From Rhodospirillaceae bacterium (lineage in GTDB: Bacteria > Pseudomonadota > Alphaproteobacteria > GCA-2731375): DNA of 64,000 nucleotides. The notes beneath the pieces were generated by a model, which searched no databases, had not been told where the DNA came from, and worked only from the letters and a program-made list of their open reading frames with translations. The position numbers and the translations under genes were made by a program. Within the stretch, counting starts at the first letter, position 1. Each line of letters opens with the position of its first letter. Below, piece by piece: positions 7,519-50,288 of the stretch. The stretch lies in assembly GCA_018660265.1 (NCBI GenBank), contig JABJKS010000106.1, positions 1,144 to 65,143 of the forward strand, given 5' to 3'.

Positions 7519-7962
7519 CTAAACGCCTGACGTGCGGCGTAGGGGTTCGAGGCGGAAGCTTAGGCGAACCCAGTTTTTCTGCAACCGGTCGCCGTCCATC
7601 AAATAGTGGGTGCGCAAGGCGGATATGTCGCGGTAGCAACGCTGTAAGGCTTCACCGTCGTTCATGGCACTGCTGCCACCGGCGATAAATAGAACATCCA
7701 CGACCTTTGCCGTTTACTCCACGCATTGTTGCAGCAGCATTTGCATATGGGCGCGTGTCCCGAAGGCACCCGGCGCAGCGCTTCGCATTCGTTGGCGCGG
7801 GCCCGCAAACCCGGGATCAGGTCGCGGGCCCGTTGGGGCATGACCTCAGAGCTTAGGTTCAGGTCAACTTCGTGGCTATGGTCCGCCCGGCATTGTCCCG
7901 TATTTCTAACCCCGCGACGGCAGTACCACCACGCCGGTGCCTTGGATCGATAGTTCATCATC
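7519..7962 (-). pseudogene. Degraded remnant of an acyl-CoA-dehydrogenase-like flavin monooxygenase: an N-terminal piece and a C-terminal piece, out of frame with each other
   Basis: The minus-strand ORFs encode LIPGLRARANECEALRRVPSGHAP, which is N-terminal-like, and VLFIAGGSSAMNDGEALQRCYRDISALRTHYLMD, which resembles the conserved C-terminal helix of ACAD-fold monooxygenases. There is no intact reading frame. Confidence 0.35.
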
Positions 7963-9060
7963 TTGCTGATGGGCCTTTTGGCTGATCTCTACACAATGGC
8001 GACCATCACCATCGATGAATTTATTGCTCACTTCGCCGTTGATATACAGCACGTCGCCTTCCGGGTTATGGCGGCGGATACGGGTTTTGTGGTTGGCCAG
8101 GAAACCGTCATCGCCCATCCAGTTGGTTAGGTGATGGGTCAGCCAGGAGACCCGCTCCGGCCCATAGTCATAGGCACCGGGGGCACCGACTTCGACTGCG
8201 AAATCGTTCTCCCAATGCACCCGCTCGGGGCAGTCGGGGATGTTAAAGCGGTTGGTAATGCCCAGGCCGGGATGTTTATGGATCTGTTGCCAGGCTAGTT
8301 TGTTGGCACGAATATAAAGCCCACCCCAACCTTGGGCATAGCAGATGAAGCCCGTGGCGGTCATGGGGCCTTTGAGCATCGTGGGTAACTTGTCGCCGAC
8401 GTTGACGTCTTCATAATAACGGGTTTCGCCACCCCGGATTTCTTCCTTGGCATAATGGCGATAGATATCCACCAGCTCTTCCTCGGTATAGCGCAGCTGG
8501 CCTTTTTTTGCGGCGTCATACTTGGTGCCGGCTTCCCGCGCCTTGTCGCGTTCCGTGCGGAAGCACCAGCTGTCGGCGCTGCAGATATTGTCGCCGTCCT
8601 GGTTATAGAATTCCACATGATAGACCTGCTCGATCGCGCGGCCTGAAAATTGTGTGTCGTGGGGGATCAGCTCCTTCAACCAGGCTTCACAATGGACTTC
8701 GTCATTGCGGTTTAGATGCTTATGCCAGTTCCAATCAGCCCCGGCCCACATGGCATGGATGCCGGGCAATCCGCCAACATAGCCGGAGATGATGCGGTTG
8801 GTCGCGAACAGAAATGAGGGCAAGGCGATCAGGCCGTCATATTTGGTCTTCGCGGCATATTCGGGATCACACCACAGGGGATTGTCGTCACCGATGCCGT
8901 GGGCATAGTGGCGGATGTTGTCCCGGGTTGCCTCGTAACACCACGGCTCCGGCATATTCTCGATCTTCACGCCGACGCGTTTTTGTAGATCTTCCAGGCC
9001 CCGTTCGGAGATTTTGGGGAACCGTCCCCCACTTTCGCTGGCTTGGCTTTCGTCGCTCAT
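7906..9060 (-). CDS. Double hot-dog (FAS1-like N-terminal plus MaoC-like C-terminal) acyl dehydratase/hydratase
   Basis: A 384 aa protein. It is a clear paralogue of 38660-39811, sharing RDxIRHxAxGxGDDNPLWxDxxYAAK and later blocks. It lies downstream of a CoA ligase in the same orientation. Confidence 0.7.
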   Translation of the reverse strand: MSDESQASESGGRFPKISERGLEDLQKRVGVKIENMPEPWCYEATRDNIRHYAHGIGDDNPLWCDPEYAAKTKYDGLIALPSFLFATNRIISGYVGGLPGIHAMWAGADWNWHKHLNRNDEVHCEAWLKELIPHDTQFSGRAIEQVYHVEFYNQDGDNICSADSWCFRTERDKAREAGTKYDAAKKGQLRYTEEELVDIYRHYAKEEIRGGETRYYEDVNVGDKLPTMLKGPMTATGFICYAQGWGGLYIRANKLAWQQIHKHPGLGITNRFNIPDCPERVHWENDFAVEVGAPGAYDYGPERVSWLTHHLTNWMGDDGFLANHKTRIRRHNPEGDVLYINGEVSNKFIDGDGRHCVEISQKAHQQDDELSIQGTGVVVLPSRG

Positions 9061-9063
9061 TGT

Positions 9064-10611
9064 CTACTCTCCTCTCGCGGCCGCTTCGCGGTCCCGCAGT
9101 ATTTTACGATTAACTTTGCCCGCCGGCGTCTTTGGCAACTCGTCCGCGAAGGCGACGATGCGGGGATATTCGTGACGGCTCAAATTCTCTTGAGCAAATA
9201 ATTGAAGTTCCTTGATAAAGCTGTCATCACCGTCCCGGTCGCTGATGATGAAAGCCTTGACGACGAGGCCCCGGATGTCGTCGGGAACACCGATCACGGC
9301 GGCTTCCAACACATCCGCATGTTTTAAAAGGGTATCTTCAATTTCCATTGCCGACATGGTCCAGCCGGCGGAAATGATGACGTCGTCGGCCCGCCCGCCG
9401 TGAAAAAAATAACCTTCGGCATCAATGTGCCCGCGATCCTTGGTGGGGAACCAGCCGTCCCGGCGCATGACCATGATCTCGCCCACTTCGTCCGGGGCGC
9501 AATGTTCACCCTTGGGGTTCAGAATGGCGACGTCCTGGCCGGGGATGGGCATGCCCAAAGATCCCAGTTTCGGCGGCAAATCCTCGGCCCCCGGATAACT
9601 ACCCAGCAGGACGCCAACTTCTGTTGTGCCGTAGAAACTGCACGGATACTGGCCAAACGTGGCCTTGGCCCATTCCGCCGTGTCCGTATCCATGGGTTCG
9701 CCGGTAAAGCTGACTTTTTCCAGGTTGAAGTTGTAATTGCCGGAGGTGCCGGCGTTTTTCATCATCCTGAAATGGGTTGCCGCCGCCGACAGATTGCTGA
9801 TCTCAAACTCTTCCAGGGCTGCCATCAACCGCTCCGGATCGAACTTGCCGGCATAAGAGGCCGTGGTAATGCCCAGAGCATGGGGCGACAGGGTGCCGTG
9901 CCAAAGACCATGCCCCCACGCGGTGGAGGAGGGGCACATGAAACGGTCGCCGGGCCTGGTGCCGGTGCCGTACAGGGCGGCCAGCATGACCGTGACAATG
10001 GATTGGTGGCGATGCTTCACGGCATCGGGCAATTCCCGCGTGGTGCCGGAAGTATATTGATACATCGCCATGTCACGGCCGGCGGTGGTCATTTCAAAGG
10101 CCGTATCGTAATTTTCAAGCATGGCCATGAAGTCATCATCTGCGATGGCCGTGTCGCAACCCGCATCTGCGGCCAAATCCGTCTTTTCAGGGGCCAACAG
10201 CAGGAATTTCGGCTGGCAGTCCCCAACCCGTAAACGCAACGCATCGGGGCCGAACAGGGTGAACATGGGCACCGCCACACAGCCGGCCTTCATGGCACCG
10301 TACAGGGCAATATAAAAATGCAATGACGGCTCTACCATCAGGGCAACCCGTTCGCCCGGCGCGATGTCCTGGGCGCGAAGATAGTTGGCGTAACGTCCCG
10401 ACCAGTCGGATATTTCGCCGAACGTGTAGCTTTCCGAACCACCTTCCGCCAAGGCAATCCGCACCGCCACGCGGTCCCGGGGGTGGCGTTCGATACATTC
10501 GTGGGCAATGTTCAGGGCCTCCCGATCGCCATCGAACAATTCCCAAAGTCTTTCTTTGGAACAGTGCTTTTGAGCGTCGGCGAATGAGGTGTAGTCGGTC
10601 AGCAGTGGCAT
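9064..10611 (-). CDS. AMP-dependent synthetase/ligase (acyl-CoA synthetase family)
   Basis: Contains the AMP-binding motif YTSGTTRELP (the YTSGTTG-type box) and a C-terminal PKTPAGKVNRK lysine motif. The start is placed at the ATG at 10611 (MPLLTDY). The ORF-track start at 10671 is a TTG that lies inside the operator motif. Confidence 0.8.
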   Translation of the reverse strand: MPLLTDYTSFADAQKHCSKERLWELFDGDREALNIAHECIERHPRDRVAVRIALAEGGSESYTFGEISDWSGRYANYLRAQDIAPGERVALMVEPSLHFYIALYGAMKAGCVAVPMFTLFGPDALRLRVGDCQPKFLLLAPEKTDLAADAGCDTAIADDDFMAMLENYDTAFEMTTAGRDMAMYQYTSGTTRELPDAVKHRHQSIVTVMLAALYGTGTRPGDRFMCPSSTAWGHGLWHGTLSPHALGITTASYAGKFDPERLMAALEEFEISNLSAAATHFRMMKNAGTSGNYNFNLEKVSFTGEPMDTDTAEWAKATFGQYPCSFYGTTEVGVLLGSYPGAEDLPPKLGSLGMPIPGQDVAILNPKGEHCAPDEVGEIMVMRRDGWFPTKDRGHIDAEGYFFHGGRADDVIISAGWTMSAMEIEDTLLKHADVLEAAVIGVPDDIRGLVVKAFIISDRDGDDSFIKELQLFAQENLSRHEYPRIVAFADELPKTPAGKVNRKILRDREAAARGE

Positions 10612-10663
10612 GGTGGGAACCCGAGTTGCGGCGAAGACAGAGAATTTTAGGATATCTCCAATA

Positions 10664-10698
10664 ATTGTCAATACGCAATAATATTGTCTATAGACAAT
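10664..10698. promoter_or_regulatory. Operator-like 35-bp motif, site 1: ATTGTCAATACGCAATAATATTGTCTATAGACAAT
   Basis: It contains an 18-bp perfect palindrome, TATTGTCTATAGACAATA. The site is centred in the divergent intergenic region between the CoA ligase and the thioesterase genes. It matches 40952-40986 at 30 of 35 positions. Confidence 0.6.
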
Positions 10699-22950: not shown

Positions 22951-22963
22951 GAGCTGCTGTCTG

Positions 22964-27354: not shown

Positions 27355-27379
27355 TACGCTCCTACTACAAATTCAATCT

Positions 27380-30552: not shown

Positions 30553-30561
30553 CCCTACCAA

Positions 30562-31209
30562 CTACTTCCAGGGCGGCGATTGGCCCCAGCGGTCCCATGA
30601 CGTCGTCTCGGAAGTGGGCAAGCGGGAGGTCGGCCCAAAGTTACCTCGTGGGTAGCCAAGGGGGATGCAGCAGTGAAAGGCCATGTCTTCGGGCACACCG
30701 AACATGGCGTTGACCCGCTCCATCACCTCCGGGTGCAGGGTCGTCAACACGGTGCCCAGGCCCAGGGCGCGGGCGGATAACAACAGGTTCTGCACGCCTG
30801 GAAAGGTGGATGAGGCGGCAACGCCCGATGCCGCGGAATAGACCAGGATGACTGTCGGTGCGTTGACCATTTCATCCGCCAGCAAGGCGGGCAGGTGGTA
30901 GACGGAACCCTCGGGAATATCCGCCTTGGAGCTCCAGCCATAGGCATCCCGTCGTTTGGCCCACCATGCCTCGAAATAAAGCTTGCCGAATTCGGCAATT
31001 GCGGCGCGGTCGCGCACGACCAGATAGCGTGCCGGTTGGGCATTGCCGCCGTTTGGTGCTTTTGAGGCGGCGTTCAAAATAATCTCTATCTGCGCATCCG
31101 TGACCTCTCGGTCCGGATCCAGCCGGCGAATGGCGCGTTGCGAGAACATCGCCTCGCCAATAGGCATCGTCAGTTCTGCGGGCGGGTCGAGGCGGACCAT
31201 ATCCATCAT
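30562..31209 (-). CDS. Nitroreductase family (FMN-dependent) protein
   Basis: A 215 aa protein with the classical nitroreductase fold pattern (R..R.., SxxNxQP-like, GYP). Confidence 0.65.
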   Translation of the reverse strand: MMDMVRLDPPAELTMPIGEAMFSQRAIRRLDPDREVTDAQIEIILNAASKAPNGGNAQPARYLVVRDRAAIAEFGKLYFEAWWAKRRDAYGWSSKADIPEGSVYHLPALLADEMVNAPTVILVYSAASGVAASSTFPGVQNLLLSARALGLGTVLTTLHPEVMERVNAMFGVPEDMAFHCCIPLGYPRGNFGPTSRLPTSETTSWDRWGQSPPWK

Positions 31210-31354: not shown

Positions 31355-32971
31355 CTAATCCAACCCATCAGGCGTTATGAAGCCTTCGGCTAGATCAGCG
31401 TTAATCGCTGTTTGCGCGCGGTCTTTCGGATCGCCGAAACCACCCCCCCCCGCTTCAATCAGGGTGATACGGTCACCCGGCGCTAATTCATAGTGGCCTT
31501 TCGGGTCCACAGTGACATCGTTGACCCGGTGTTCCCTGGCCTGGCCGGGGGCACCGCCCATAAGGCCCAGGGGTGGAAACTCCGTCCGATTGGCCATACA
31601 AAAGACGGTCATCAGATGGCCGCTATCATTGCGGATCACCACCTCTTGGCCCAAACCGCCACGAAATTCCCCGGCCCCGCCTGAATTGGGCAGCAATGCC
31701 TTATGCTCGATGCTGGTGGAGGTCAGGGTCTCCCATACTTCAACCGGGACCACAGCCATATTGGACGGCCCGGGTGTCGTCTCCGCCCCGTCCATGCCGG
31801 CCAAGGCACCGAAACCACCGGAGGCGAAATAGATCGTTGAGACGTCATGGCCGTCCCGGTGTTTGCCCTGAAAGGTCATCAAATCCATCATGCCGCAATC
31901 GGCCTGAATGCTGTCGGGAACAGCCGCTGCCAAGGCACCAAAAACCAGGGGCGAGACGAAATGGCCGATCATATGGCGCGCACCGGTGGCTGAAGGGGGC
32001 TGGGCATCCAGCAGGCAACCGGTTGGTGCGGTGACGGTGATGGGCACCACAGAGCCGCCATTGTTGGGCAATTCGGGCACGGTCAGACACTTCATGGAAT
32101 ACAGCACCATGGCGCGGGTATAACAAAACGGTACGTTGATGCCCCGGCGCACGCAGGGATCGGTGCCGGTGAAATCGACACTCATGGTATCGCCGGTGAT
32201 CTCTATTGAACAAGCCAGGGTCAACGGGCCATCCACGCCCTCTATCTGAATTTCGTTCTGATAGATGCCATCGGCCATATCGGCGATGCGCAGGCGGGTC
32301 GCCGCCTCGGACCGGCCGCGAATTTCACCGGACAGGTCCGCAAAATCCGGCAGATCGAATTCATTGAGAAAATCCGTCAACATGGTCTCGCCGGCCTTGG
32401 TCGCGGTGACATTGGCCATCAGATCACCGATAACTTGATCAGGTGCCCGCACATTGGTCCGCATCAATTCGATGATGAAATCGTTCTGCAGGCCGGCGTC
32501 GAACAATTTGCAAACCGGCAGGCGCAGACCTTCGTGATAGATCTCCCGCGCTGCCGCGCCAAAACCCAAACCACCAATGTCGGGTAAATGGGTGATGGAA
32601 ATGACGTAGGCAACGATAGTGCCGGCAAAGAATATTGGCCGCATGACATTGATATCGAACGTATGCCCGGTGCCCAACCAGGGATCGTTGGTGATCACCA
32701 CATCGCCGGGCTGCAGGCTGTCGGCGGGATAGACATCCAGCATATGCTGCAGGGTTGCAGGCGCGGTGCCCATGAAAACCGGTACGCTGTAGGTGCCCTG
32801 GGCCATCAATTGACCTTGCGCATCCAGCAGGGCGACGGTCAGATCATAACTTTCGCTTACGATGGTGGAGAATGATGTGCGTACCAACGTCGATACAATT
32901 TCGTCGGAGACCGCAACCAGCCGATCCCACATGATGCCGACGCTGACGGCGTCCAAGGTTTTGGCGGTCAT
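31355..32971 (-). CDS. hyuB: Hydantoinase B/oxoprolinase family subunit (HyuB-like), second copy
   Basis: A 538 aa protein with Hydantoinase_B conserved blocks. It overlaps the upstream hyuA by 4 nt. Confidence 0.85.
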   Translation of the reverse strand: MTAKTLDAVSVGIMWDRLVAVSDEIVSTLVRTSFSTIVSESYDLTVALLDAQGQLMAQGTYSVPVFMGTAPATLQHMLDVYPADSLQPGDVVITNDPWLGTGHTFDINVMRPIFFAGTIVAYVISITHLPDIGGLGFGAAAREIYHEGLRLPVCKLFDAGLQNDFIIELMRTNVRAPDQVIGDLMANVTATKAGETMLTDFLNEFDLPDFADLSGEIRGRSEAATRLRIADMADGIYQNEIQIEGVDGPLTLACSIEITGDTMSVDFTGTDPCVRRGINVPFCYTRAMVLYSMKCLTVPELPNNGGSVVPITVTAPTGCLLDAQPPSATGARHMIGHFVSPLVFGALAAAVPDSIQADCGMMDLMTFQGKHRDGHDVSTIYFASGGFGALAGMDGAETTPGPSNMAVVPVEVWETLTSTSIEHKALLPNSGGAGEFRGGLGQEVVIRNDSGHLMTVFCMANRTEFPPLGLMGGAPGQAREHRVNDVTVDPKGHYELAPGDRITLIEAGGGGFGDPKDRAQTAINADLAEGFITPDGLD

Positions 32972-35037
32972 GATCCTGCCTCCAACTCCGCGATCAGATT
33001 GCCGAACTCATCCACTTCGACCTTATCACCAGGGCCAATTACAACGGTGGATTCCCGTTCTTCGATCAAGGCAGGCCCATCTATGACCGCGCCCATGGCC
33101 AAGCTATAGCGGTCATAGACCAGCGTCGTCATATAATCTTCACCAAAATAGGCCTGACGGCTCCCCTTGGGCCTCGCCGTGCCTTGTGCATCAGGTGCTG
33201 CTGTCGTCAACTCCGGGGCGGTTGCCGTGGCTTCCACCTTCCAGGTCGTAATGACCAAAGGTGCATCCAGTAATGCCGCGCCGTGTACAGTGGCGTAATG
33301 ATCCCGGAAGATATCCGGTAATGCCCCAATATCCGAACCTGTGGGCAGGGTAACCTCTATCTCGTGGCCCTGGCCGTGATAACGCATGTCCAGCCGTTGG
33401 ATGACCGACAAATCCGTGCCGGCGCTCTGCAATGGTGCCTTTGCCTCAATTTCCAGGTCCGCCAGGGTGGCCGCGAAATCCTCGGCGCTTAGGTCCGCGA
33501 CAAAGGCCTGTTTGGTGCGCGCAACTTCAAACGTCAAGGGGCTGGCCAGCAATCCCAGGGCGGACATGACACCGGCGGCGACGGGGAATATCACCCGTGG
33601 AATGCCCAGTTTGCGGGCCACGCCCATGGCATGCACCGGGCCGGAACCGCCAAACGCCACCATGGAGCTGCCGCGATAGTCAAAACCGCGTTCCGAGGCG
33701 TGAATGCGAAAGGCCCGCGCCACATCTTCATCAACAATTTCGTGAATCCCCCAAGCCGCCCGCGCCAGGGATAGCTTCAGCGGCCCCGCGATTTGCGTTT
33801 TGATCACCTGTTCGGCGGCGGCCACATCCAATGCCATGGCACCGCCGAGAAAGAAATTCGGGTCCAGATAACCCAGCACCACATTGGCATCGGTCAACGT
33901 AGCGGCCTGACCGCCCTGGCCATAGCAGGCGGGCCCTGGATCGGCGCCTGCACTATGCGGCCCGACACGAATTGTGCCGCGTACATCGACCGCGGCGATA
34001 GAGCCACCGCCTGCACCGATCTCGATCATATCAATGACCGGGCTTTTCACGGGCAGACCGCTGCCGGCCTTAAAATCGTGCACCCGGGCGACTTCCTGGA
34101 AATAGACCTTGATGGCTTCGCCGCCACGTATCAGGGCGCCCTTGGCGGTGGTGCCCCCCATATCGAACGACAGCAATTCCGGGCGCTTTAGGGCCCGGCC
34201 ATGAAAGGCAGACATTTGCGCGCCTGCCGCCGGGCCGGATTCAATAACCCGGGCCGGAAACTTTCGTGCCGTTTCAGGTGTCAACGTGCCGCCGCTGGAA
34301 GACATCACGAACAACTGCCCGGCAAATCCCAGATCATTCAGACCGCTTTCCAAGCGTCGTAGATATTGATCGAACATGGGCTGGGTAAAGGCATTGATGC
34401 ATGTGGTGGTGAACCGTTCATATTCACGCCATTCCGGGCAGACCTCCGATGACAGGGATATGTTCAGGTCAGGAAAAGTCGCCGCCGCCATGTCTCCCAG
34501 GGCCCGCTCGTGATCAGGATTGGCATAGCCATGGAGGAGACATATGGCCAGCGACGTGATGCCCTCGCGGCGCACAAGGTCCGCCAACGTCGCCCGCGCT
34601 GCGTCCAGATCCAGGGTTTGTTCGATGGTGCCGTCATAATGCACCCGTTCCGCGACCTCAACCCGGCGGCGGCGCGGCACCAGGGGTTCGGGGAAAACCA
34701 GACGCAGATCGAACACGTCGTATCGTTTCTCCTGGCGCATATCCAGGATGTCGCGAAAGCCTGCCGTGGTCAGCATACCGGTGACAGCGCCCTTACGCTC
34801 GATCACCGCATTGGTTACCAGGGTGGTGCCATGGACGATTTCGACCACGGGGGATAAATCAAGGCCCTGTTGGCCCAGCAACGCCATCGTACCTTCCAGC
34901 ACGGCGCGGGCGGGGTCATCGGGTGTGGTGAGCTGTTTATGGATGGCAAAACTGCCGCCTGCCTCGTCATAGAGGGCGAAATCAGTGAACGTACCGCCGA
35001 TATCGATGCCCAGTCGGTAGGTGGAGCGGGCGGCCAT
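32968..35037 (-). CDS. hyuA: Hydantoinase/oxoprolinase family A subunit (HyuA-like), second copy
   Basis: The N-terminus is LGIDIGGTFTDFALYDEAGG. 689 aa. Confidence 0.85.
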   Translation of the reverse strand: MAARSTYRLGIDIGGTFTDFALYDEAGGSFAIHKQLTTPDDPARAVLEGTMALLGQQGLDLSPVVEIVHGTTLVTNAVIERKGAVTGMLTTAGFRDILDMRQEKRYDVFDLRLVFPEPLVPRRRRVEVAERVHYDGTIEQTLDLDAARATLADLVRREGITSLAICLLHGYANPDHERALGDMAAATFPDLNISLSSEVCPEWREYERFTTTCINAFTQPMFDQYLRRLESGLNDLGFAGQLFVMSSSGGTLTPETARKFPARVIESGPAAGAQMSAFHGRALKRPELLSFDMGGTTAKGALIRGGEAIKVYFQEVARVHDFKAGSGLPVKSPVIDMIEIGAGGGSIAAVDVRGTIRVGPHSAGADPGPACYGQGGQAATLTDANVVLGYLDPNFFLGGAMALDVAAAEQVIKTQIAGPLKLSLARAAWGIHEIVDEDVARAFRIHASERGFDYRGSSMVAFGGSGPVHAMGVARKLGIPRVIFPVAAGVMSALGLLASPLTFEVARTKQAFVADLSAEDFAATLADLEIEAKAPLQSAGTDLSVIQRLDMRYHGQGHEIEVTLPTGSDIGALPDIFRDHYATVHGAALLDAPLVITTWKVEATATAPELTTAAPDAQGTARPKGSRQAYFGEDYMTTLVYDRYSLAMGAVIDGPALIEERESTVVIGPGDKVEVDEFGNLIAELEAGS

Positions 35038-36632
35038 CAGCGATTGTCCGGCAATACGTCGATGGCATCGCCAACGCCGCGCTCTCGCAATTCATGGCGG
35101 GCGATTTCATTCTTGGTCATGGTACGGGGAAAATCTGCGACGAACTCCATATAACGGGGGACCTTGAAAAAGGCGATGCGATCCTGACACCATTCCACCA
35201 GCTCCATTGGTTCCGGCGTCGCCTCGTCCTCCGACAGCTGGATGTAGGCTTTGATGTCTTCTTCGCCAATGTCCGATGGCACGCCGACGACGGCGCAGTC
35301 GATCACGGCAGGGTGGGCCGTCATTGCCTTTTCCACTTCGAAGGCGGAGACGTTTTCGCCCCGACGGCGGATCCAGTGGGCCTCCCGTCCAACGAAATAG
35401 AGAAAGCCATCGTCGTCCAGATAACCCAGATCACCACTGTGGTACCAAAGGTTCTTCCAGGCCGCCAAAGTCTCGGTCGGTTTGTTGATATACTCGATCA
35501 TGTAAGTGTTGGGTACTTTGGGGCGCAGGAGGATCTGCCCGGTGGTGTTCGCCGGCACCGGGTTGTCGTCCGCATCCACGATCATCACCTCTGTCCAGCC
35601 GTGGGGCCGGCCACAGGAACCAAGACGGCGATCAAAGGTCCGCTCGCTACAGATCAGCACGCCCATCTCGGTCATGGAATAGACTTCCATCATGGGTGTG
35701 CCGAAACGTTCCTCAAACTCATCGCGCAGATCCCGGCGCACCTGGCCGGCGGCAATGCCAACGCCGATGCGAACTTTATGGTTCTTATCCTGATCGGATG
35801 CAGGGGCCCGCAACAACACCGCCATCATGGTGCCCAAGGGATCGATGACCGTGACGCCATATTTGCGGATAATCTTCCAGTAGTTGGAGGCCGAGAACCA
35901 TTTTTCCATGATCCCGGTCATGCCGAGATAAAGGGGGGAGGTGATGGCGAATTGCTGACCGCCAATATGGAAGAAATGTGAATTCGCAAAATGCACATCG
36001 TCCTCCGTCGCCTCGGCAATATCGCCATAGCGGATCGCGGCGGCGATATAATACAGATGCGACACCAAAACACCCTTGGGCATGGACGTGCTGCCGCCCG
36101 TATAGACGATGCACATAGGGTCGGCGGCGGCGACGTCGGCATCAGGCAGGGTTTCATCATCGCCCATCAGATCGCTAAAGGGCAGGGTGCCGGGACCGGG
36201 AACGGCGGCCACATCGCCCAGGACCAGGACCTCCGGATCGCCGGTCAGGTCCGGTTTGGCGGCGTTATAGGCAGGGGCCAGTTCTTCATCCACCACCAAC
36301 AGCTTTGCGCCGGTGTCGTTCAGGCTGTAACACATATCATCCTTGACCAGGCTGACATTCAGGGAGGCGTAGATCGCGCCGATCTTTGCACAGCCGAACC
36401 AGATCAAGGCCTGTTCAAGGGAATTGTACATCAGGGTGGCGACCACATCGCCCTTGCCGATACCGTGGGCCAGCAGGCGATTGGCGACCTTGTTTGACAG
36501 ACGGTCGGCGTCTGCGTATGTCAGCGTTTCATCACGGCAGATCAGATAGGGTTTGTCGCCATAGCTGGCGCGCATGACGATCAGGTCGCGCAAGGTTGTT
36601 GCGTGGGGTGTGCGGCCAAGGATATCGATCAT
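35037..36632 (-). CDS. AMP-dependent synthetase/ligase (acyl-CoA synthetase family)
   Basis: Contains the AMP-binding box IVYTGGSTSMPKGV and a C-terminal lysine. 531 aa. Confidence 0.8.
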   Translation of the reverse strand: MIDILGRTPHATTLRDLIVMRASYGDKPYLICRDETLTYADADRLSNKVANRLLAHGIGKGDVVATLMYNSLEQALIWFGCAKIGAIYASLNVSLVKDDMCYSLNDTGAKLLVVDEELAPAYNAAKPDLTGDPEVLVLGDVAAVPGPGTLPFSDLMGDDETLPDADVAAADPMCIVYTGGSTSMPKGVLVSHLYYIAAAIRYGDIAEATEDDVHFANSHFFHIGGQQFAITSPLYLGMTGIMEKWFSASNYWKIIRKYGVTVIDPLGTMMAVLLRAPASDQDKNHKVRIGVGIAAGQVRRDLRDEFEERFGTPMMEVYSMTEMGVLICSERTFDRRLGSCGRPHGWTEVMIVDADDNPVPANTTGQILLRPKVPNTYMIEYINKPTETLAAWKNLWYHSGDLGYLDDDGFLYFVGREAHWIRRRGENVSAFEVEKAMTAHPAVIDCAVVGVPSDIGEEDIKAYIQLSEDEATPEPMELVEWCQDRIAFFKVPRYMEFVADFPRTMTKNEIARHELRERGVGDAIDVLPDNR

Positions 36633-36647
36633 GGTTGTGCCTCTGCT

Positions 36648-38663
36648 TTATTCAAAATGTCCGGCGATGCCAACAACGCCTGCCGCCTTTAACGAGTCTA
36701 TCTCATCATCCGGCAGGGAGAGAACCCGGCGCAAGACGAAATCATCGCCCTCCCCCAACAGCGGTGCCGTCTTGCGCAGGCCGGGGCGATGGCTGTTAAC
36801 CCGCCAAGGGGCAGCGACCAGGGCCTCATCCCCCGTGTAGGGGTGGGTGGAGGATATCCAACCGGAACAGTCCGCAAATACTGCCGAATTGTCGGTCTCA
36901 TCCAGTTCCAACAAATCTGCCCAGTGCCCGCCTAATGCGGTGCAGCGCTCAACAATATCAGCCCGGCTTAAACCCTCGAAATTTTCATCAGCGGCATCGC
37001 AGGGCACGGAGACGGCAATGAAAGATCCGTCTTTTGCCGTGACGATGGCATCACGGGTCGCGAGCGGTGGTGTCGGGGTTGCCGCCAATGTCGCGGCGGC
37101 CTCAATTTGGGAGACGTCAAAGGCCCGGCCCGTGCCGTCTTCTCCCGCAGCCAGGACGCCCGCCAGGAGGCCCATAGCCCCGAAGGCAGCTGCGTTGGGG
37201 TCGGAGAGGGAGAATGTGGGGGAGCCTAGGAATTCGCCGTCCTTGGTGATCAAATCCTCTGCCCCGCCCAGGGCGCTGAGCACCAGGCCGTAAGATCGCA
37301 GCTTTTCCACGGCTGAGCCTCGGCCGGGCCCGCTCATGGACATTTGTACCAAGGTCGGGTTGGCCTGAGCAAGATCGTCGGGACCCAGGCCAAGGCGCTC
37401 CATTGTGCCGACGGTGAAGTTCTCGATCAACAGATCGGACACGGCGGCCAGTTCCAGGGCCGTCTTGCGACCGTCGGGATGTTTCAGGTCAAGGGCCAGG
37501 CCGGTTTTGTTGCGGTTCAGGCTATGGAAATACAGGGAAGATTCGATGCGGGCCTTTTCCGGCATTTTTTTGCGCAGGGCTTCCAGGCCACGGGTGCGGT
37601 AGAGGTCAAAACGCCCAGGCGCTTCCATCTTGATGACTTCGGCTCCAAGGTCAGCCAGGATTTGACCGACCATGGGCCCAGACCAGACCCAGCACAATTC
37701 CAGACAACGCAGGCCCGCCAGGGGCGAACCGGCGACATCGTCATGTACACGCCGCTGCCGGTCCCGCGCTGCACCACCCGTCAGGGGTTGGATTTGGAAC
37801 GGCATCGCCGGTATGTCGTCAACAATGAAATTGTCGCGAAAAACGTCCCGGGCGGCAGCCTCCGCCTGACTATAGACCGGCGCGATCACAGCACCTTCGG
37901 CCAGGCCCCGTTGCAGCAACTCGTCCCGGCCCAAAGCCGACAAGGTGCCTTCCAGCAACCGGTCCGCCGCCGCACTGTCCCGCGCCAACACGAAAGGGTC
38001 CTGATAGGCTTCACCTTTGGCCCAGTCAGGATCGCCAACGGCTTTGCGGATGTTGTGCCAATCCCGCCGCGACCGTCCCAATAAGGCCACATAGCCATCT
38101 TTACAGGCGTAGAACCCCATGGGAAAGATGCCGCCGTGCTCAACGCACAGGCGACCATTGCGTCGCCAGGAGCGGACCATTTCTTCTGGCCCGCCGGAAT
38201 TTTGCAGGGAGAAGGAGCGCATAATATCGGCGGCGGAGACATCGTAGCGAACAGGCTTGCGCGCTTTGCCGTTGCCATTGCCATTTCGTTGCCGCCAGAC
38301 TTCAGCCAATGCCAGGATCACGCCATAGATACCGCACCATTTTTCGGGCATGTCGCTGGGCAGGGGGACGCCGGGGCCCCCTTTGTGACCAATCACGGCC
38401 GCGGCCCCTGATACAGCCGAGGCCAAGGCACCGGTGCCCGGATGCCCGACCTGGTAATCCCAAAGACGAATGACACAGTTGGCATCAGATGCCGTATCCC
38501 CGCCGACGACGGCAATATCCGTATCAGCCACGGCGGCATCGTCCCCGCCACCCAACATTCGCAGCCATTGCCGTGCGTAGGAGGTTGAGCGGTTGCTGGC
38601 AGTTACCGTAATTTCTGCTGCCGCTGAAAGGGGAACCTGTCTTGTTTTGCAGTCCTGGCTCAT
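36648..38663 (-). CDS. CoA-transferase family III (CaiB/BaiF-like), double-length 671 aa form
   Basis: The C-terminal half contains LRCLELCWVWSGPMVGQILADLGAEVIKMEAPGRFD, the CoA-transferase III N-terminal motif. The N-terminal half is divergent but of similar size. Confidence 0.7.
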   Translation of the reverse strand: MSQDCKTRQVPLSAAAEITVTASNRSTSYARQWLRMLGGGDDAAVADTDIAVVGGDTASDANCVIRLWDYQVGHPGTGALASAVSGAAAVIGHKGGPGVPLPSDMPEKWCGIYGVILALAEVWRQRNGNGNGKARKPVRYDVSAADIMRSFSLQNSGGPEEMVRSWRRNGRLCVEHGGIFPMGFYACKDGYVALLGRSRRDWHNIRKAVGDPDWAKGEAYQDPFVLARDSAAADRLLEGTLSALGRDELLQRGLAEGAVIAPVYSQAEAAARDVFRDNFIVDDIPAMPFQIQPLTGGAARDRQRRVHDDVAGSPLAGLRCLELCWVWSGPMVGQILADLGAEVIKMEAPGRFDLYRTRGLEALRKKMPEKARIESSLYFHSLNRNKTGLALDLKHPDGRKTALELAAVSDLLIENFTVGTMERLGLGPDDLAQANPTLVQMSMSGPGRGSAVEKLRSYGLVLSALGGAEDLITKDGEFLGSPTFSLSDPNAAAFGAMGLLAGVLAAGEDGTGRAFDVSQIEAAATLAATPTPPLATRDAIVTAKDGSFIAVSVPCDAADENFEGLSRADIVERCTALGGHWADLLELDETDNSAVFADCSGWISSTHPYTGDEALVAAPWRVNSHRPGLRKTAPLLGEGDDFVLRRVLSLPDDEIDSLKAAGVVGIAGHFE

Positions 38664-39811
38664 GCGGGCGCGAGCGGTAATGGAACGGGGCCATCCTGTC
38701 GTGAGGGCAAAGCAACCACGGCTGTGCCCGAGGCCGATAACAAGTCAGATTGATTGCGGGCTTCTACTTTTAGATCGAGGAACTTGGCAGCGCCCACCTC
38801 CCGTTTGCCCAGAACTTCGCCACGCCACCAGATCGTATCGCCGACCATGTTCGGCTGCAGCACATTGACTTTTAGTTGATGCAGAAAGCCGTGATCGCCG
38901 ATCCAGTTGGTCAGCATGTGCTGGCCCCAGGCGATACGTTGTGGCCCGACGTCATAGGCCCCGCCCATGCCGACGTCCCGGCCTGTTGAGGCCTCCAAAT
39001 GGCCGCGCCCGGCGGAATCCTTGGCACCTGTTTCCGCATTGATATGGTAATCGTCGTGGCGGCGGCGATAGCGCAAGGCATCGCCATGCACCCCACCATA
39101 ATGCAACGCGCCTTGGGCGGCGGCATACCAGGCCAGGATATCGGTGATGGTCAACGGACCCTTGATAACGGGGGGTACATGGGCACCCACGTCCACATCT
39201 TCCCAATATAAGGGTACGTTCCCTTGCCGGGGTTCGGCTAGAACCTGTTCTTCAATGTCCGCCAGTTCCGCCGGTTCATAGCGATAAGCCACATGGCCTT
39301 TGGGTTCTTCACCGTCCTTACGTTTGCGACCGTCGCCACGGGGCGTGCGGGCGCATTTTCCGATGGCCTCGGCGATCAGATTTCCGTCCTGGTTCCGATA
39401 AGACAGGGCACCGGTCTGTAACGCCCATTTGCCAAACCGGCGGCCGGTCTTCACCTCCTGCTTGATCAGTTTGACATCAATTTTGAAGCTGTCGTTGATG
39501 CGGATATGGTCGTACCAGGTCCATTCCGTACCGGCATAGATCCATTGCACCCCGGCCAATTTTGGTGCCACGATTGTGCAGTCCACGGCGTAAAGTATGC
39601 AGGGCGGGGCCAAAATTGTACCTGCAGGAGATTTAGCGGCATAGTCCGCATCAAACCACAGGGGATTGTCGTCGCCGACGCCCCAGGCGAAATGGCGGAT
39701 GGTGTCCCGCGTGGTGGCCTCAATCCACTGCATACGGTCGCGGCGCAGGGGCACACCGATCAATTCAGCCGCCGCTGCCAGGGTCTCATCGTTTATCTGC
39801 CCCCAAGTCAT
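38660..39811 (-). CDS. Double hot-dog (FAS1-like plus MaoC-like) acyl dehydratase/hydratase, a paralogue of 7906-9060
   Basis: A 383 aa protein that shares conserved blocks with the 7906-9060 product. Confidence 0.7.
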   Translation of the reverse strand: MTWGQINDETLAAAAELIGVPLRRDRMQWIEATTRDTIRHFAWGVGDDNPLWFDADYAAKSPAGTILAPPCILYAVDCTIVAPKLAGVQWIYAGTEWTWYDHIRINDSFKIDVKLIKQEVKTGRRFGKWALQTGALSYRNQDGNLIAEAIGKCARTPRGDGRKRKDGEEPKGHVAYRYEPAELADIEEQVLAEPRQGNVPLYWEDVDVGAHVPPVIKGPLTITDILAWYAAAQGALHYGGVHGDALRYRRRHDDYHINAETGAKDSAGRGHLEASTGRDVGMGGAYDVGPQRIAWGQHMLTNWIGDHGFLHQLKVNVLQPNMVGDTIWWRGEVLGKREVGAAKFLDLKVEARNQSDLLSASGTAVVALPSRQDGPVPLPLAPA

Positions 39812-39839
39812 GTCGTCACCTGCCTATTTTCTCCACCGG

Positions 39840-40889
39840 TTAGCTTTGGACATGGGGCATGACTTCTTTGGCGAACAGACGCAGCATATCCAGGCACTGT
39901 TGCACCCCATAGTAGGGCGGGTAATGCAGCATCAGGGAGGTGACGCCGATTTTCTCCAGCTCTTTAATGCGGCGGATCACGGTGTCGGGAGAGCCATGGA
40001 TAATGGTGGTATCCACCAAATTGTCGTAGGCAAACTGTGAAGCGTCATCTTTTTCCGTGACATCACCTAAATATCCGGCGGTATCACCCGACAGAAATGT
40101 CTTCATATGATAGGTGATGGCCGCCTCGCTCTCCTCCTTAGCCTTGGCATCGGTGGCTGCGACATAGACCATGCGGACAACGTCAAACTGTCCAAATGCC
40201 GGGTTCTGGTTTAGGGGTGCGGGTGCCGTTTTCATATGTTTTTGATAAAATTCGATGTTCTTGCCCAGCACCTCAATTGAAGGCAGAGAGCCCTGCATCA
40301 GGCCAAAGCCTTTTTCCGCTGCTAATTGCATAGAGTTTTCCGTGCCCGCGCCCATGAAAAAAGGCGGGTGGGGCCGTTGGACAGGTTGCGGGAAAATCTC
40401 GTAGCTTTCATCCATCTTGAACTTGAAGAATTTGCCGTCGGAATTGACCCGTTTTTTGTGGAAACCGTCCAATATCAGGTCTACCGCTTCGGCCTGACGC
40501 TCCCGCCGGCTGTCAAAATCAACACCCAGACCTTCGAATTCATATGGCCGATAGCCGGAACCAAGGCCCAACTGAAAGCGCCCCTCGCTCAAAATATCAA
40601 CAAAGGCGGCGTTTTCCACAATGCGCATGGGATGGTGCAAAGGCACCACCATTACTGCCGCCCCCAGTTTGATCCGCGTCGTTTTCGCGGCGAGATAGCT
40701 GAGATAGGCAAATGGATCCGGCATAATGCCGTAACGGTTGGAAAAATGATGCTCGGCGATCCAGATGCTATCAAAGCCTAATTCCTCGGCCTCAACGATT
40801 TCCCGTGTTACCCGCTCATGAATGGCTTGATGGGGGTAGACCTCTGTCTCCGGGTCCGGGTGGGACGTGAACAAAATACCAAACTTCAT
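39840..40889 (-). CDS. LLM-class (luciferase-like) flavin-dependent monooxygenase/oxidoreductase
   Basis: A 349 aa TIM barrel with the LLM signature (FDSIWIAEHHF). It is the first gene of the minus-strand operon. Confidence 0.8.
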   Translation of the reverse strand: MKFGILFTSHPDPETEVYPHQAIHERVTREIVEAEELGFDSIWIAEHHFSNRYGIMPDPFAYLSYLAAKTTRIKLGAAVMVVPLHHPMRIVENAAFVDILSEGRFQLGLGSGYRPYEFEGLGVDFDSRRERQAEAVDLILDGFHKKRVNSDGKFFKFKMDESYEIFPQPVQRPHPPFFMGAGTENSMQLAAEKGFGLMQGSLPSIEVLGKNIEFYQKHMKTAPAPLNQNPAFGQFDVVRMVYVAATDAKAKEESEAAITYHMKTFLSGDTAGYLGDVTEKDDASQFAYDNLVDTTIIHGSPDTVIRRIKELEKIGVTSLMLHYPPYYGVQQCLDMLRLFAKEVMPHVQS

Positions 40890-40951
40890 TTTGGTGCTTC
40901 CTCTATTTGCATCAACCTGACAGCAGCAAAATCATTATGGAACTGGACATA

Positions 40952-40986
40952 GTTGTCAATGTGCAATACTGTTGTCTATAGACAAT
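40952..40986. promoter_or_regulatory. Operator-like 35-bp motif, site 2: GTTGTCAATGTGCAATACTGTTGTCTATAGACAAT
   Basis: It has the 14-bp perfect palindrome TTGTCTATAGACAA at its core. It lies 12 to 46 nt upstream of the iclR start and inside the divergent promoter region of the LLM operon. Confidence 0.6.
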
Positions 40987-40997
40987 GGAATGACATA

Positions 40998-41798
40998 ATG
41001 ACCAATGCCGATGGGGCACGATCACAATCGAAATCATCAGGGGCCCCGGGGTCTGCAGGCCCCGCACGGCCCGTCACGGCGGTAAGCCGTGCTGCCAGCA
41101 TACTACGCTATTTAGGGCGTAGTCAGGTACCCCTGGGGGTCAATCGTATTGCCAGGGATTTGGATATTATCCCCAGCACGGCCCTGCATATCTTGCGCAC
41201 GTTGGCGCATGAAGATTTGGTGGTTTTTGATCCCAATACAAAGCGCTATGGACTTGGTGTCGGCGTTTTGGGTATCGCCCGCAACATGTTGGGCGGTAGT
41301 GGTTTTGTACAGGCGGCACAGGGCCATCTGAACGCCATTGCCGCGGAATTCGATATGGCTGCCATTGCCGTGGAATTGGACAGTCATGACCATATGGTGG
41401 TGACGGCTTTGGCGCGCTCCGGACTGGATCTGAGTATCCATGTCAATATTGGCAGCCATTTCCCGGCCTTGATTTCCGCGACGGGACGCTGCATCGCCGC
41501 CCAGCGCAACTGGGACCGGAAAGAATTGGCCGGGCGGTTCAAGGATTTACGCTGGCAGAACCCGCCGTCGTTCGAGGTTTGGCTGGAGGAGATTGAGGCG
41601 GCCCGTCGGAACGGCTTTGCCATTGATGACGGCAATTATATTCGGGGCATCATCATCGTGGCCGCACCCATTACCCAACCCCCAGGGGCACCCAGCCGGG
41701 CCATTGTTGCCGTCGGCGTGACCGGGCAGCTGGACGCTGGCCAACGCCAGACCCTGGCGCAAAAACTGCGGGCGGCAGCCGACAGTCTAGCTGCTTAG
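40998..41798 (+). CDS. IclR family transcriptional regulator
   Basis: The N-terminal HTH region (RAASILRYLGRSQVPLGVNRIARDLDIIPSTALHILRTL) and the C-terminal effector domain are typical of IclR proteins. Confidence 0.8.
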   Translation: MTNADGARSQSKSSGAPGSAGPARPVTAVSRAASILRYLGRSQVPLGVNRIARDLDIIPSTALHILRTLAHEDLVVFDPNTKRYGLGVGVLGIARNMLGGSGFVQAAQGHLNAIAAEFDMAAIAVELDSHDHMVVTALARSGLDLSIHVNIGSHFPALISATGRCIAAQRNWDRKELAGRFKDLRWQNPPSFEVWLEEIEAARRNGFAIDDGNYIRGIIIVAAPITQPPGAPSRAIVAVGVTGQLDAGQRQTLAQKLRAAADSLAA

Positions 41799-45425: not shown

Positions 45426-45434
45426 GTGGGCGCC

Positions 45435-46013: not shown

Positions 46014-46028
46014 GCTCGTGCTCCTTCA

Positions 46029-48057: not shown

Positions 48058-48072
48058 TTTACCAATTACTCC

Positions 48073-48381: not shown

Positions 48382-48480
48382 GGCTCGCTCTCCTACATTA
48401 TCTGGTATTGTTTGTTTCTGACAAGATCATGGCACGGATCATGGCATTCTGGGGCTGTAATAAAAAGGGTCGGTTCAAAT

Positions 48481-50231: not shown

Positions 50232-50288
50232 GGCTATTCCTCTGCTGATCATTGCAAAAGTAGTGTAGCATTGTCCGTCAGTAGGGGG

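Follow-up and report, generated by a model that had tools for sequence, protein, structure and literature searches.

A CoA-linked module joined to a HyuA/HyuB pair in a marine alphaproteobacterium: probably a composite operon

Judged by gene content, the iaa operon for anaerobic indoleacetate degradation in Aromatoleum aromaticum appears to be the closest precedent for the locus described here, with a hydantoinase-like enzyme (IaaCE), a CoA ligase (IaaB) and a CoA-transferase (IaaL) (PMC8360864; PMC8453981 Table 1). It is the sole described pathway that we found with a Hyu-type enzyme in a CoA-linked route. An earlier note on this DNA did not recognise the six-gene combination as a described pathway. 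A Hyu-type hydrolase, a CoA ligase and a CoA-transferase do meet in one known pathway, that of the iaa operon (PMC8360864; PMC8453981). For the six-gene combination as a whole, and for the module defined below, our literature search found no publication. The camphor pathway uses diketocamphane monooxygenases of the luciferase-like (LLM) type, a CoA ligase and OTEMO. DddD, the DMSP CoA-transferase/lyase, is one polypeptide of about 830 aa with two tandem full CaiB-like domains. This tandem architecture has been described (PMC5395668). The note had the ring-opened acid of the caprolactam pathway go straight to CoA activation. This has to be corrected, since transamination comes first (PMC6061476).

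The present locus is a six-gene operon at 31355-40889 on the minus strand of a 64-kb stretch of DNA (hereafter the window) from an uncultured marine alphaproteobacterium. All six ORFs reported before are present and their Pfam families agree. From the 5' end the order is LLM, MaoC-like, CoA_transf_3 (CaiB), AMP-ligase, HyuA and HyuB. The features of the operon and its borders are:

40953..41798, plus strand: IclR-family regulator, divergent from the operon (Pfam HTH_IclR and IclR_C)
40972..40985, no strand assigned: putative IclR operator, perfect 14-bp palindrome TTGTCTATAGACAA, conserved 5' of the module
40931..40959, minus strand: sigma-70-like promoter candidate, TTGACA-17-AATGAT, between the operator and the LLM start
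39840..40889, minus strand: luciferase-like flavin monooxygenase (LLM; LuxA-like, probably FMN type), 349 aa, PF00296, 222 bits
38660..39811, minus strand: divergent MaoC-like double-hotdog protein, putative enoyl-CoA hydratase/dehydratase, 383 aa, PF13452, 37 bits
36648..38663, minus strand: fused two-domain family-III CoA-transferase, 671 aa, PF02515, 244 bits
35037..36632, minus strand: AMP-forming acyl-CoA ligase, 531 aa, PF00501 and PF13193
32968..35037, minus strand: HyuA, ATPase subunit of an ATP-dependent lactamase-family hydrolase, 689 aa, three Pfam Hydantoinase_A domains
31355..32971, minus strand: HyuB, metal-dependent hydrolytic subunit, 538 aa, PF02538, 449 bits (above the gathering cut-off)
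30562..31209, minus strand: nitroreductase-family flavoprotein, PF00881

The genes are tightly packed. Three 4-nt overlaps had been counted; overlaps are indeed found at three junctions, but only two of them measure 4 nt (MaoC/CaiB and HyuA/HyuB), and the ligase/HyuA overlap is 1 nt (cTGATGg). The other two junctions are gaps of 28 nt (LLM/MaoC) and 15 nt (CaiB/ligase), in line with the limit of 28 nt given before. Co-transcription of the six genes, as proposed in the note, is likely in view of this spacing, the conserved coupling and one promoter-like site plus operator 5' of LLM. The promoter candidate is kept in locus L007. It is weak on its own because sigma-70-like sites are not more numerous in the region than in shuffled sequence. 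A separate promoter for HyuAB was not detected in the window. Related loci with the six-gene arrangement number nine, and in all of them the ligase/HyuA junction is -1, -4 or +10 nt; since the arrangement recurs in this way, it is no assembly accident. The conserved coupling could reflect a real metabolic link within this clade, a point against the composite reading proposed below.

Like iaa, the window pairs a two-subunit hydantoinase-like hydrolase with its own CoA ligase and with a CoA-transferase of the family-III type, the one in iaa serving a substituted succinate. The window differs in having LLM and MaoC while lacking the B12 mutase (IaaGH) and the benzylmalonyl-CoA dehydrogenase (IaaF). 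A Pfam search of about 38 window ORFs, covering the operon and both flanks (1-5500 and 46000-60000 only in part), found no mutase or acyl-CoA dehydrogenase domain. Moreover, the Hyu pair of the window is dispensable for the module across genomes, and the two systems are likened by gene content only.

HyuA contains the Hydant_A_N, Hydantoinase_A and Hydant_A_C domains (167, 275 and 50 bits, all above the gathering cut-offs) and the motifs GIDIGGT, DMGGTT and GADPGP. Against PDB sequences it scores 397 bits with N-methylhydantoinase and 319 bits with caprolactamase alpha. In HyuB, none of the residues D43, H103, D106 and H128 varies over 15 orthologues, and their spacing is that of the CapB metal tetrad (D41, H99, D102, H124), which is shared with the carboxylases (PMC8453981). 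With ATP motifs and metal tetrad intact, the pair looks competent. It resembles the ATP-dependent lactamases (CapAB, 5-oxoprolinase, N-methylhydantoinase) in two-subunit architecture, Pfam domains, ATP motifs, metal tetrad and sizes, and one orthologue (L080) has a class-III aminotransferase gene as its neighbour, an arrangement also seen in the caprolactam cluster. It differs from CapAB in falling well under the caprolactamase equivalog cut-offs (NF050156/NF050157; HyuA 463 bits, HyuB 198 bits, cut-off 1000 for both). HyuB is a divergent branch, with 449 bits on PF02538 compared with 608 for the second HyuB of the window. Its scores are 172 bits against 6yra_B and 163 bits against 7hk5, both lactamases, and 66-73 bits against PDB Apc/Acx chains. 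No small gamma-subunit ORF was found downstream of HyuB among the window ORFs. The sequence comparisons thus support the assignment to the hydrolase type (lactamase, oxoprolinase, hydantoinase) rather than to a carboxylase-like one, and the view of the earlier note, which had put the pair among these enzymes by its size and the missing gamma subunit, is borne out. In these comparisons HyuB is far closer to caprolactamase and N-methylhydantoinase than to Apc/Acx.

The CoA-transferase departs from the single domain of about 400 aa, assembled as an interlocked homodimer, that is normal for family III, being about 270 aa longer, with two domains. Residues 1-310 correspond to a shortened second subunit and residues 311-671 to the catalytic subunit. 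In Foldseek its AF2 model (pTM 0.91) matches whole SUGCT, Frc and BbsEF chains with a TM of about 0.7. The two halves match two adjacent L064 genes in swapped order, with 41% and 46% identity; in Sphingobium and Paraburkholderia the split form consists of two genes (380 and 323 aa), in the order opposite to the window fusion. The best PDB sequence match is the BbsEF chain 9fn0_B, and the nearest relatives of the CaiB domain act on dicarboxylates (SUGCT, BbsEF, mesaconate). The invariant D488 (SDPNAA) lies in the region where HMMER alignments to solved transferases place the active site, and is a candidate equivalent of the catalytic Asp169 of Frc.

BbsEF, the benzylsuccinate CoA-transferase, belongs to family III and has two subunits, as does the split form. 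In the carnitine system (CaiB/CaiC/CaiD), too, a ligase does the priming, a family-III transferase recycles CoA and a hydratase completes the set. In contrast to both, the second subunit here is shortened to about 310-320 aa and, in the window, N-terminally fused. The CaiB and CaiC models are far under their cut-offs (32 bits against 413, and 314 bits against 651), and the hydratase here is a MaoC hotdog protein, not a crotonase. DddD, compared by description only, also has two tandem CaiB-like domains in a single chain, but the N-terminal domain of the window protein is shortened and its MaoC/ligase/oxygenase context is unrelated to ddd clusters. The ligase is the most conserved gene of the module (69-95% identity over module loci). 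It reaches the cut-off of no NCBIfam equivalog, and its highest score is 400 bits, with PRK06155.

The MaoC-like protein scores 19.6 bits on PF01575, under the gathering cut-off of 27, and was identified through PF13452 and its predicted fold. Its AF2 model (pLDDT 75) has a double-hotdog fold. Foldseek ranks double-hotdog hydratases at the top, those for mesaconyl-CoA and itaconyl-CoA among them (probability 1.0 to 5i7n, 4e3e, MeaC, PaIch and MFE-2 hydratase 2). Throughout the module family the protein is 63-92% identical. Its motif is G-D-D-N-P-L-W, with an invariant Trp52 at the place of the catalytic His in the hydratase-2 motif, G-D-x-N-P-x-H with catalytic Asp and His. Because of this Trp and a poorly modelled, conserved C-terminal region, the protein is possibly no simple hydratase. 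Several members of the family are fused to AMP-binding domains, which would argue for a MaoC-ligase partnership and so for the module, and one member is fused to a PrpD/MmgE domain.

LLM carries an EHHF motif (aa 46-49). Its best solved relatives are FMN enzymes, namely the Enhygromyxa LuxA 8cbb, the poly(acrylic acid) monooxygenase 8k74 and 7bip, and its best NCBIfam match is the F420 family TIGR03619 (142 bits, under the cut-off of 167). The nearest solved relatives are oxygenases of the luciferase type that act on aldehydes, so LLM may just as well oxidise an aldehyde to an acid as form a lactone. Baeyer-Villiger routes for alicyclic ketones are similar in that an LLM or a type-I BVMO works together with an enzyme that hydrolyses the lactone, and the acid from the opened ring is activated with CoA; the split-CaiB clusters described below hold BVMO, lactonase and ligase. 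Comparable logic has been predicted for SAR202 FMNO pathways acting on marine refractory organic matter (PMC5395668). On the other hand, LLM is distant from diketocamphane monooxygenase (50 bits), and the window's own operon is without a lactonase. We know of no alicyclic-ketone route with a two-domain family-III transferase or a member of this MaoC family.

We compared 69 genome loci and 84 metagenome loci. About 45 of the 69 genome loci, all alphaproteobacterial and all without HyuAB, contain the module LLM-MaoC-CaiB-ligase in an unchanged gene order. The four genes are rearranged but still adjacent in L063, L065 and L069 (Betaproteobacteria, Hyphomonadaceae) and stand alone in a 4-Mb MAG. 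A related cluster with split CaiB comprises IclR, CaiB1, CaiB2, MaoC, SMP-30 lactonase, FMO-type BVMO and ligase; it is found in 9-11 loci plus Paraburkholderia, and cultured Sphingobium and Paraburkholderia carry it. A bona fide BVMO family thus takes the LLM slot in this form. An SMP-30 lactonase adjoins the module in 13 loci, and in about 20 module loci a lactonase is absent from the vicinity. HyuA and HyuB follow the ligase in the window's own clade only, which spans 81-100% HyuB identity with tight ligase/HyuA coupling, and they occupy the exact position of the lactonase in sister lineages.

Conversely, HyuB orthologues (57-90% identity) lie away from the module in 82 of 84 loci, with ligase or CaiB next door in the other 2. 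Their contexts include a class-III aminotransferase, an OpuAC/ABC/ADI set and, in about 15 loci, paralogous Hyu pairs. Two close relatives, L084 and L085, share the neighbourhood without module and operator, in the layout Mo-hydroxylase, IclR, HyuA, HyuB, Alr, HyuB2, HyuA2, TRAP, and fall inside the module-bearing clade in a neighbour-joining tree of HyuA plus HyuB that has no support values. Directly past IclR, the window and the loci L007, L012, L014 and L015 have a Mo-hydroxylase of three subunits, and such genes accompany HyuAB in its closest relatives only. The second Hyu pair of the window, HyuA2B2, shares its operon with DctPQM and a gene of the alanine racemase family, on the strand opposite to HyuAB and about 8 kb away.

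The IclR ORF opens at a TTG at 40953, and public gene calls start at 40998 (266 aa). Orthologues with 54-81% identity are divergent from LLM in L007, L020, L021 and L035, and homologues with 29-39% identity lie upstream of split CaiB in L062-L075. The palindrome TTGTCTATAGACAA has two perfect copies in the 64 kb and, at up to 2 mismatches, 3 matches where shuffles give 0.06. With 0-2 mismatches it is directly 5' of the module in L007, L010, L012, L014-L017, L020, L021 and L035, it forms tandem copies 5' of split CaiB in Sphingobium and Paraburkholderia, and a search of L084 and L085 did not find it. From marine MAGs to Sphingobium and Paraburkholderia, the regulator and the putative operator track the module, not HyuAB.

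The other copies of the palindrome lie beside a paralogous pair of module genes:

10684..10697, no strand assigned: second perfect operator palindrome copy, match to TTGTCTATAGACAA
10665-10678, no strand assigned: degenerate operator copy TTGTCAATACGCAA, beside the second perfect copy
9064-10671, minus strand: AMP-ligase 2 (LIG2; Pfam), in the paralogous pair 7906..10671
7906-9060, minus strand: MaoC-like 2 (MaoC2; Pfam), in the paralogous pair 7906..10671
10768-11715, plus strand: double 4HBT thioesterase (Pfam 4HBT), divergent from LIG2
11712-12596, plus strand: MBL-fold lactonase-like hydrolase (Pfam Lactamase_B), divergent from LIG2

MaoC2 is 34% identical to MaoC over the full length and LIG2 is 23% identical to the ligase. 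The thioesterase ORF is open from 10684, with a likely ATG at 10768. For the MBL protein, every one of the best NCBIfam matches is a lactonase (AidB, YtnP, 4-pyridoxolactonase, AiiA, AttM), under its cut-off in each case. This gene would be controlled by the second operator, in keeping with a lactone theme of the module.

We suggest that the operon is probably a composite of two separable units, an IclR-controlled CoA module and an autonomous HyuAB passenger. The first unit (IclR, operator, LLM, MaoC, CoA-transferase and ligase) would be a catabolic module for a carbonyl-bearing organic acid, probably a cyclic ketone; its chemical steps are all proposed from family membership and gene context. 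The ligase would make the first acyl-CoA at the expense of ATP. The LuxA-like oxygenase, probably FMNH2-dependent, may then insert oxygen beside the carbonyl in Baeyer-Villiger style to give a lactone or ester, which a lactonase would open, SMP-30 in sister lineages and, as a candidate here, the MBL-fold protein at the second operator. The MaoC double-hotdog enzyme would hydrate or dehydrate an enoyl-CoA, and the two-domain transferase would hand the CoA of the product on to a further substrate molecule, or load a dicarboxylate with CoA taken from succinyl-CoA. Once primed, the module would need no further ATP, as in the CaiB/CaiC, BbsEF and IaaL systems. In the second unit, HyuA would phosphorylate a cyclic amide and HyuB would hydrolyse it at its metal site. 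In the window's clade, translational coupling ties HyuAB to the last gene of the module, so that the pair would be co-expressed under the module's regulator, and it would be no obligatory step of the module.

The earlier note had instead read the six genes as one HyuAB-centred pathway, in which HyuAB opens a lactam or cyclic imide with ATP, the acid is CoA-activated by ligase or transferase, and MaoC and LLM follow. To this model one may add that the Mo-hydroxylase upstream could supply the lactam by acting on an N-heterocycle, much as has been suggested for indoleacetate. The kept ligase-HyuA coupling in nine loci, the place of HyuAB in the slot of a ring-opening lactonase, the Mo-hydroxylase beyond IclR and the iaa precedent speak for it, and since CaiB relatives use dicarboxylates, opening of a carboxylated lactam would yield a suitable substrate. 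We nevertheless find it doubtful. About 45 loci have the module and no HyuAB, 82 of 84 have HyuAB and no module, regulator and operator follow the module, L084 and L085 kept HyuAB after loss of module and operator, orthologues with about 70% identity have unrelated contexts, and no B12 mutase or IaaF-type dehydrogenase was found among the window ORFs searched. These two relatives suggest another assignment, in which HyuAB belongs to their backbone (Mo-hydroxylase, second Hyu pair, TRAP, racemase) in a pathway for a lactam or N-heterocyclic carboxylate, and the linkage to the CoA module is positional. Their exact backbone without the module, the paralogous Hyu pairs beside HyuAB orthologues and the gene content of the HyuA2B2 operon agree with this. 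It is rather unlikely all the same, as Mo-hydroxylase genes lie beside HyuAB in the closest relatives only, the two Hyu pairs are on opposite strands, and HyuAB is coupled to the ligase with no promoter of its own detected. A ketone carboxylase of the acetone/acetophenone type, forming a beta-keto acid that is then CoA-activated, is hardly credible and was rejected as the identity of HyuAB: superfamily and metal tetrad are common to both, yet there is no gamma gene, HyuB is short compared with carboxylase catalytic subunits of 684-776 aa, its Apc/Acx scores are low, and the ApcD model gives 73 bits against a cut-off of 1500.

For the module itself, a C5-dicarboxylate route (itaconate, mesaconate or citramalate; Ict/Ich- or Mct/Mch-like) without lactone chemistry is quite improbable. 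MeaC and PaIch are among the fold matches of MaoC, the CaiB domain matches succinyl-CoA:mesaconate transferase and SUGCT, and the PrpD/MmgE fusion fits. However, identity to those enzymes is 11-16%, all NCBIfam scores are far under cut-off, the clusters have no citramalyl-CoA lyase, and the recurrent oxygenase (LLM or BVMO), lactonase and ligase are left unexplained. Returning to the composite operon, a bolder idea for its passenger, and one to which we give little credence, is that HyuAB replaced the SMP-30 lactonase and opens, driven by ATP, the module's own cyclic intermediate, which would be a lactone or a lactam with a carboxylate or CoA thioester attached. If true, no Hyu-family enzyme would have been shown before to act in a Baeyer-Villiger/CoA pathway or on a ring other than an amide.

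Downstream of the operon, the nitroreductase-family flavoprotein is a possible FMN reductase partner for LLM, though the link is weak. Its gene follows HyuB after a gap of 145 nt, in which no clear terminator was found, and is near the operon in the closest relatives only.

What is conserved at this locus is a set of four genes with their regulator rather than all six genes. An operon of six minus-strand genes had been described in the earlier note, and all six open reading frames were found in place, with their families confirmed by Pfam:

39840-40889, minus strand: LLM protein, 349 aa (PF00296)
38660-39811, minus strand: MaoC-like protein, 383 aa (PF13452; PF01575 at only 19.6 bits)
36648-38663, minus strand: family-III CoA-transferase (CaiB), 671 aa (PF02515)
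35037-36632, minus strand: AMP-ligase, 531 aa (PF00501 and PF13193)
32968-35037, minus strand: HyuA, 689 aa (Hydantoinase_A domains)
31355-32971, minus strand: HyuB, 538 aa (PF02538)

The junctions from LLM to HyuB are +28, -4, +15, -1 and -4 nt, one base being common to the ligase stop and the HyuA start (cTGATGg). A terminator scan gave no convincing terminator after HyuB or between the operon genes, with counts at shuffle level. Close packing of this kind is no proof of a common pathway, even where one gene's stop codon overlaps the next one's start. All six proteins fall in known superfamilies, none reaches a curated equivalog cut-off of the NCBIfam models, and they are also present in marine metagenome assemblies. 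A divergent IclR gene lies upstream of the operon and faces, in convergent orientation, the genes for a three-subunit molybdenum hydroxylase. These subunits (L/S/M), whose closest models are glyceraldehyde dehydrogenase and CODH group-5, below cut-off, belong to an eight-gene minus-strand cluster (41795-48057) that also encodes two carboxymuconolactone-decarboxylase-family proteins, a HIBADH-like dehydrogenase and a MetE-like Meth_synt_2 protein (PRK06520, 466 bits, above cut-off). The last gene of this cluster overlaps the IclR 3' end by 4 nt.

When one genome per species was searched using an alignment built on the 671-aa transferase, 69 loci were recovered, all but a few of them from uncultured Alphaproteobacteria. 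The order LLM-MaoC-CaiB-ligase is kept in about 45 of them (tblastn with the window proteins). In three loci from Betaproteobacteria and Hyphomonadaceae (L063, L065 and L069), the four genes are reordered and still adjoin one another, and in one 4-Mb MAG they stand alone with unrelated genes on either side. Only the nearest relatives, with CaiB identity of at least 67%, have HyuA and HyuB after the ligase (L007, L008, L011, L012, L016, L017 and L018).

Between IclR and the LLM gene lies a perfect 14-bp palindrome, TTGTCTATAGACAA (40972-40985), the putative IclR operator ("operator" below). It recurs with 0-2 mismatches directly upstream of the module in marine loci, and as two tandem copies upstream of a distant form with a split transferase in Sphingobium, Rhizobiaceae, Hoeflea and Paraburkholderia. 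The operator is conserved in deep-sea Alphaproteobacteria and as far as cultured Sphingobium and Paraburkholderia. The module is a widespread, well-delimited cluster with a recognisable regulator and operator; among its products are an atypical MaoC and a family-III CoA-transferase of an unusual kind, with two domains or two subunits. In our full-text literature search no published description of the module, the operator, the two-subunit or fused transferase or the atypical MaoC was found, in agreement with the earlier note, which did not recognise the six-gene combination as a described pathway. The module does fit a scheme that has been predicted for marine bacteria rich in FMNO and CaiB (PMC5395668). 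Oxygenase/CoA-transferase sets in uncultured marine bacteria are thought to attack refractory dissolved organic matter. Because cultured carriers exist in Sphingobium (S. aquiterrae DSM 106441 and S. phenoxybenzoativorans SC_3) and Paraburkholderia (MaoC WP_266260770.1), the substrate of the module should be findable by genetics, and the answer could then apply to uncultured bacteria that are abundant in the sea.

We clustered every ORF in the neighbourhoods of the 69 loci. A single extra gene recurs around the module, encoding an SMP-30/gluconolactonase-family protein. In 13 loci it either follows the ligase directly or stands just ahead of the LLM gene; tblastn found no SMP-30 lactonase in the window. 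In the distant group, where the transferase is split into two overlapping genes, the cluster consists of IclR, CaiB1, CaiB2, MaoC, an SMP-30 lactonase, an FMO-type Baeyer-Villiger monooxygenase (BVMO) and an AMP-ligase. Frequent extras there are a thiolase-like/DUF35 pair, an SDR, a crotonase, an aldehyde dehydrogenase and a TRAP or TonB transporter. Comparison of the two cluster types indicates that the oxygenase slot is filled by either an LLM protein or a classical BVMO, and that the lactonase accompanies both. The LLM protein has a LuxA-like EHHF motif, and its best solved relatives are all FMN enzymes, namely 8cbb (LuxA of Enhygromyxa), 8k74 (a poly(acrylic acid) monooxygenase) and 7bip (rishirilide biosynthesis).

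At no more than two mismatches the window holds three operator matches, compared with 0.06 expected from shuffles. A second perfect copy lies between a ligase/MaoC pair and a thioesterase/MBL pair:

10684-10697: second perfect operator copy, with a degenerate tandem copy at 10665-10678
9064-10671: paralogous ligase, beside the second operator
7906-9060: MaoC2, beside the second operator, 34% identical to MaoC

On its other side, up to 12596, are a double-4HBT thioesterase and an MBL-fold hydrolase whose best family matches are all lactonases, all below cut-off. This second site suggests a small set of IclR-controlled genes for lactone-related reactions, with 7906-12596 as its putative second member. 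A third operator-like site, TTGGCTATCGACAA (49147-49160, two mismatches), falls within, or at the border of, ORFs 48412-49416 and 49413-50411.

Besides the operon pair (HyuAB), the window carries a second Hyu pair within an apparent plus-strand operon (15995-24064):

19200-21251, plus strand: HyuA2
21244-22950, plus strand: HyuB2

The same operon encodes a DctPQM TRAP transporter and an alanine-racemase-family protein (TIGR00492, 201 bits, above cut-off). This gene content suggests that a carboxylated lactam, e.g., 5-oxoproline, is taken up and opened in an ATP-dependent reaction. The block adjoins HyuAB in L008, L016, L017, L084, L085 and L089. Relative to L085, L008 and L016, an Atu-like minus-strand block (25780-30024) is inserted between the two pairs; it encodes an AtuA with a ferredoxin-like domain, a gamma-carboxygeranoyl-CoA hydratase-like crotonase and an mmdA-like carboxyltransferase, but no gene for a biotin carboxylase lies close by. 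Within 30118-31209 the minus strand encodes a nitroreductase-family protein and the plus strand a member of the PF04075 "F420H2-dependent quinone reductase" family.

HyuAB is an autonomous unit. In 80 metagenome loci with HyuB orthologues (57-90% identity) and four further contexts, a ligase or CaiB stands beside HyuB in only two of the 84 (L090 and L154). The other neighbourhoods of the orthologues include a class-III aminotransferase (an arrangement also seen in the caprolactam cluster), an OpuAC/ABC/ADI-DDAH set, flanking IS66 elements and paralogous Hyu pairs. The loci L084 and L085, whose HyuB is 85-86% identical to that of the window, share its backbone (Meth_synt_2, Mo-hydroxylase M/S/L, IclR, HyuA, HyuB, racemase, HyuB2, HyuA2, TRAP). 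The four-gene module and operator are missing there, and the IclR-HyuA intergenic region is not homologous to that of the window. Since both loci nest inside the module-bearing clade in a neighbour-joining tree of HyuA and HyuB, computed without support values, we suggest that the module was lost and HyuAB kept.

The enzyme looks functional from its residues. HyuA has the motifs GIDIGGT, DMGGTT and GADPGP, and D43, H103, D106 and H128 of HyuB match the CapB metal tetrad, which is essential by mutagenesis (PMC8453981). Against PDB chains, HyuA scores 397 bits with N-methylhydantoinase, 319 with caprolactamase and 161-246 with carboxylases; for HyuB the values are 163, 172 and 66-73. Both are below the caprolactamase equivalog cut-offs. 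By these scores, and with no gamma subunit present, HyuAB is of the hydrolase type, in line with the 5-oxoprolinase, N-methylhydantoinase or caprolactamase type proposed earlier from size and the lack of a gamma subunit; the placement, by bit scores with PDB chains and with NCBIfam models, approximates the Hyu phylogeny asked for in the note.

Do the six genes serve one route? In the clade of the window, the spacing between ligase and HyuA is -1, -4 or +10 nt in each of the nine loci, and HyuAB occupies the slot held by the lactonase in sister lineages. Because of this conserved coupling and position, HyuAB and the module are likely co-expressed in this clade, and to this extent the co-transcription claimed in the earlier note stands. 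Both observations also speak for a single pathway, for which the iaa operon is a precedent, as it shows that one route can combine a hydrolase of the Hyu type with a CoA ligase and a CoA-transferase of the succinate type (PMC8360864; PMC8453981 Table 1). However, the module and HyuAB each occur without the other, and the regulator and operator track the module only. We thus consider a single six-gene pathway, as the note had proposed, unlikely, and think it probable that two separable units have been joined in one operon.

The transferase of the module is itself composite. Residues 311-671 correspond to the first Sphingobium split gene (46% identity) and residues 1-310 to the second (41%). Since the halves match the two genes in swapped order, the protein is a reversed-order fusion of both subunits; the same pairwise comparison rules out a circular permutation. 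Its AF2 model (pTM 0.91) matches the folds of SUGCT, of formyl-CoA transferase and of BbsEF, the heteromeric transferase for benzylsuccinate, and D488 (SDPNAA) is invariant. Conservation in the shortened N-domain (residues 1-310) equals that of the catalytic domain: PEKWC (106-110), HGGIFPMGF (176-184) and GRSRRDW (196-202) are invariant, and the position that aligns with the catalytic Asp holds a conserved acidic residue. This domain may have a second activity.

MaoC is highly conserved and keeps 63-66% identity in loci where that of CaiB falls to 45%. Its model is a double hotdog, with mesaconyl-CoA and itaconyl-CoA hydratases among the nearest folds (11-16% identity), and a Trp takes the position of the hydratase-motif His. 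The family comprises about 295 clusters at 50% identity (E <= 1e-30). Members of about 1,000 aa proved not to be MaoC-CaiB fusions; in this set (P0430, P0454, P0463, P0476, P0479 and P0500) MaoC is fused N-terminally to NRPS-like AMP-binding (adenylation)/carrier domains, with condensation, thioesterase or nitroreductase domains as well, and in one protein C-terminally to a PrpD/MmgE domain. These fusions support a probable partnership between MaoC and an adenylating enzyme.
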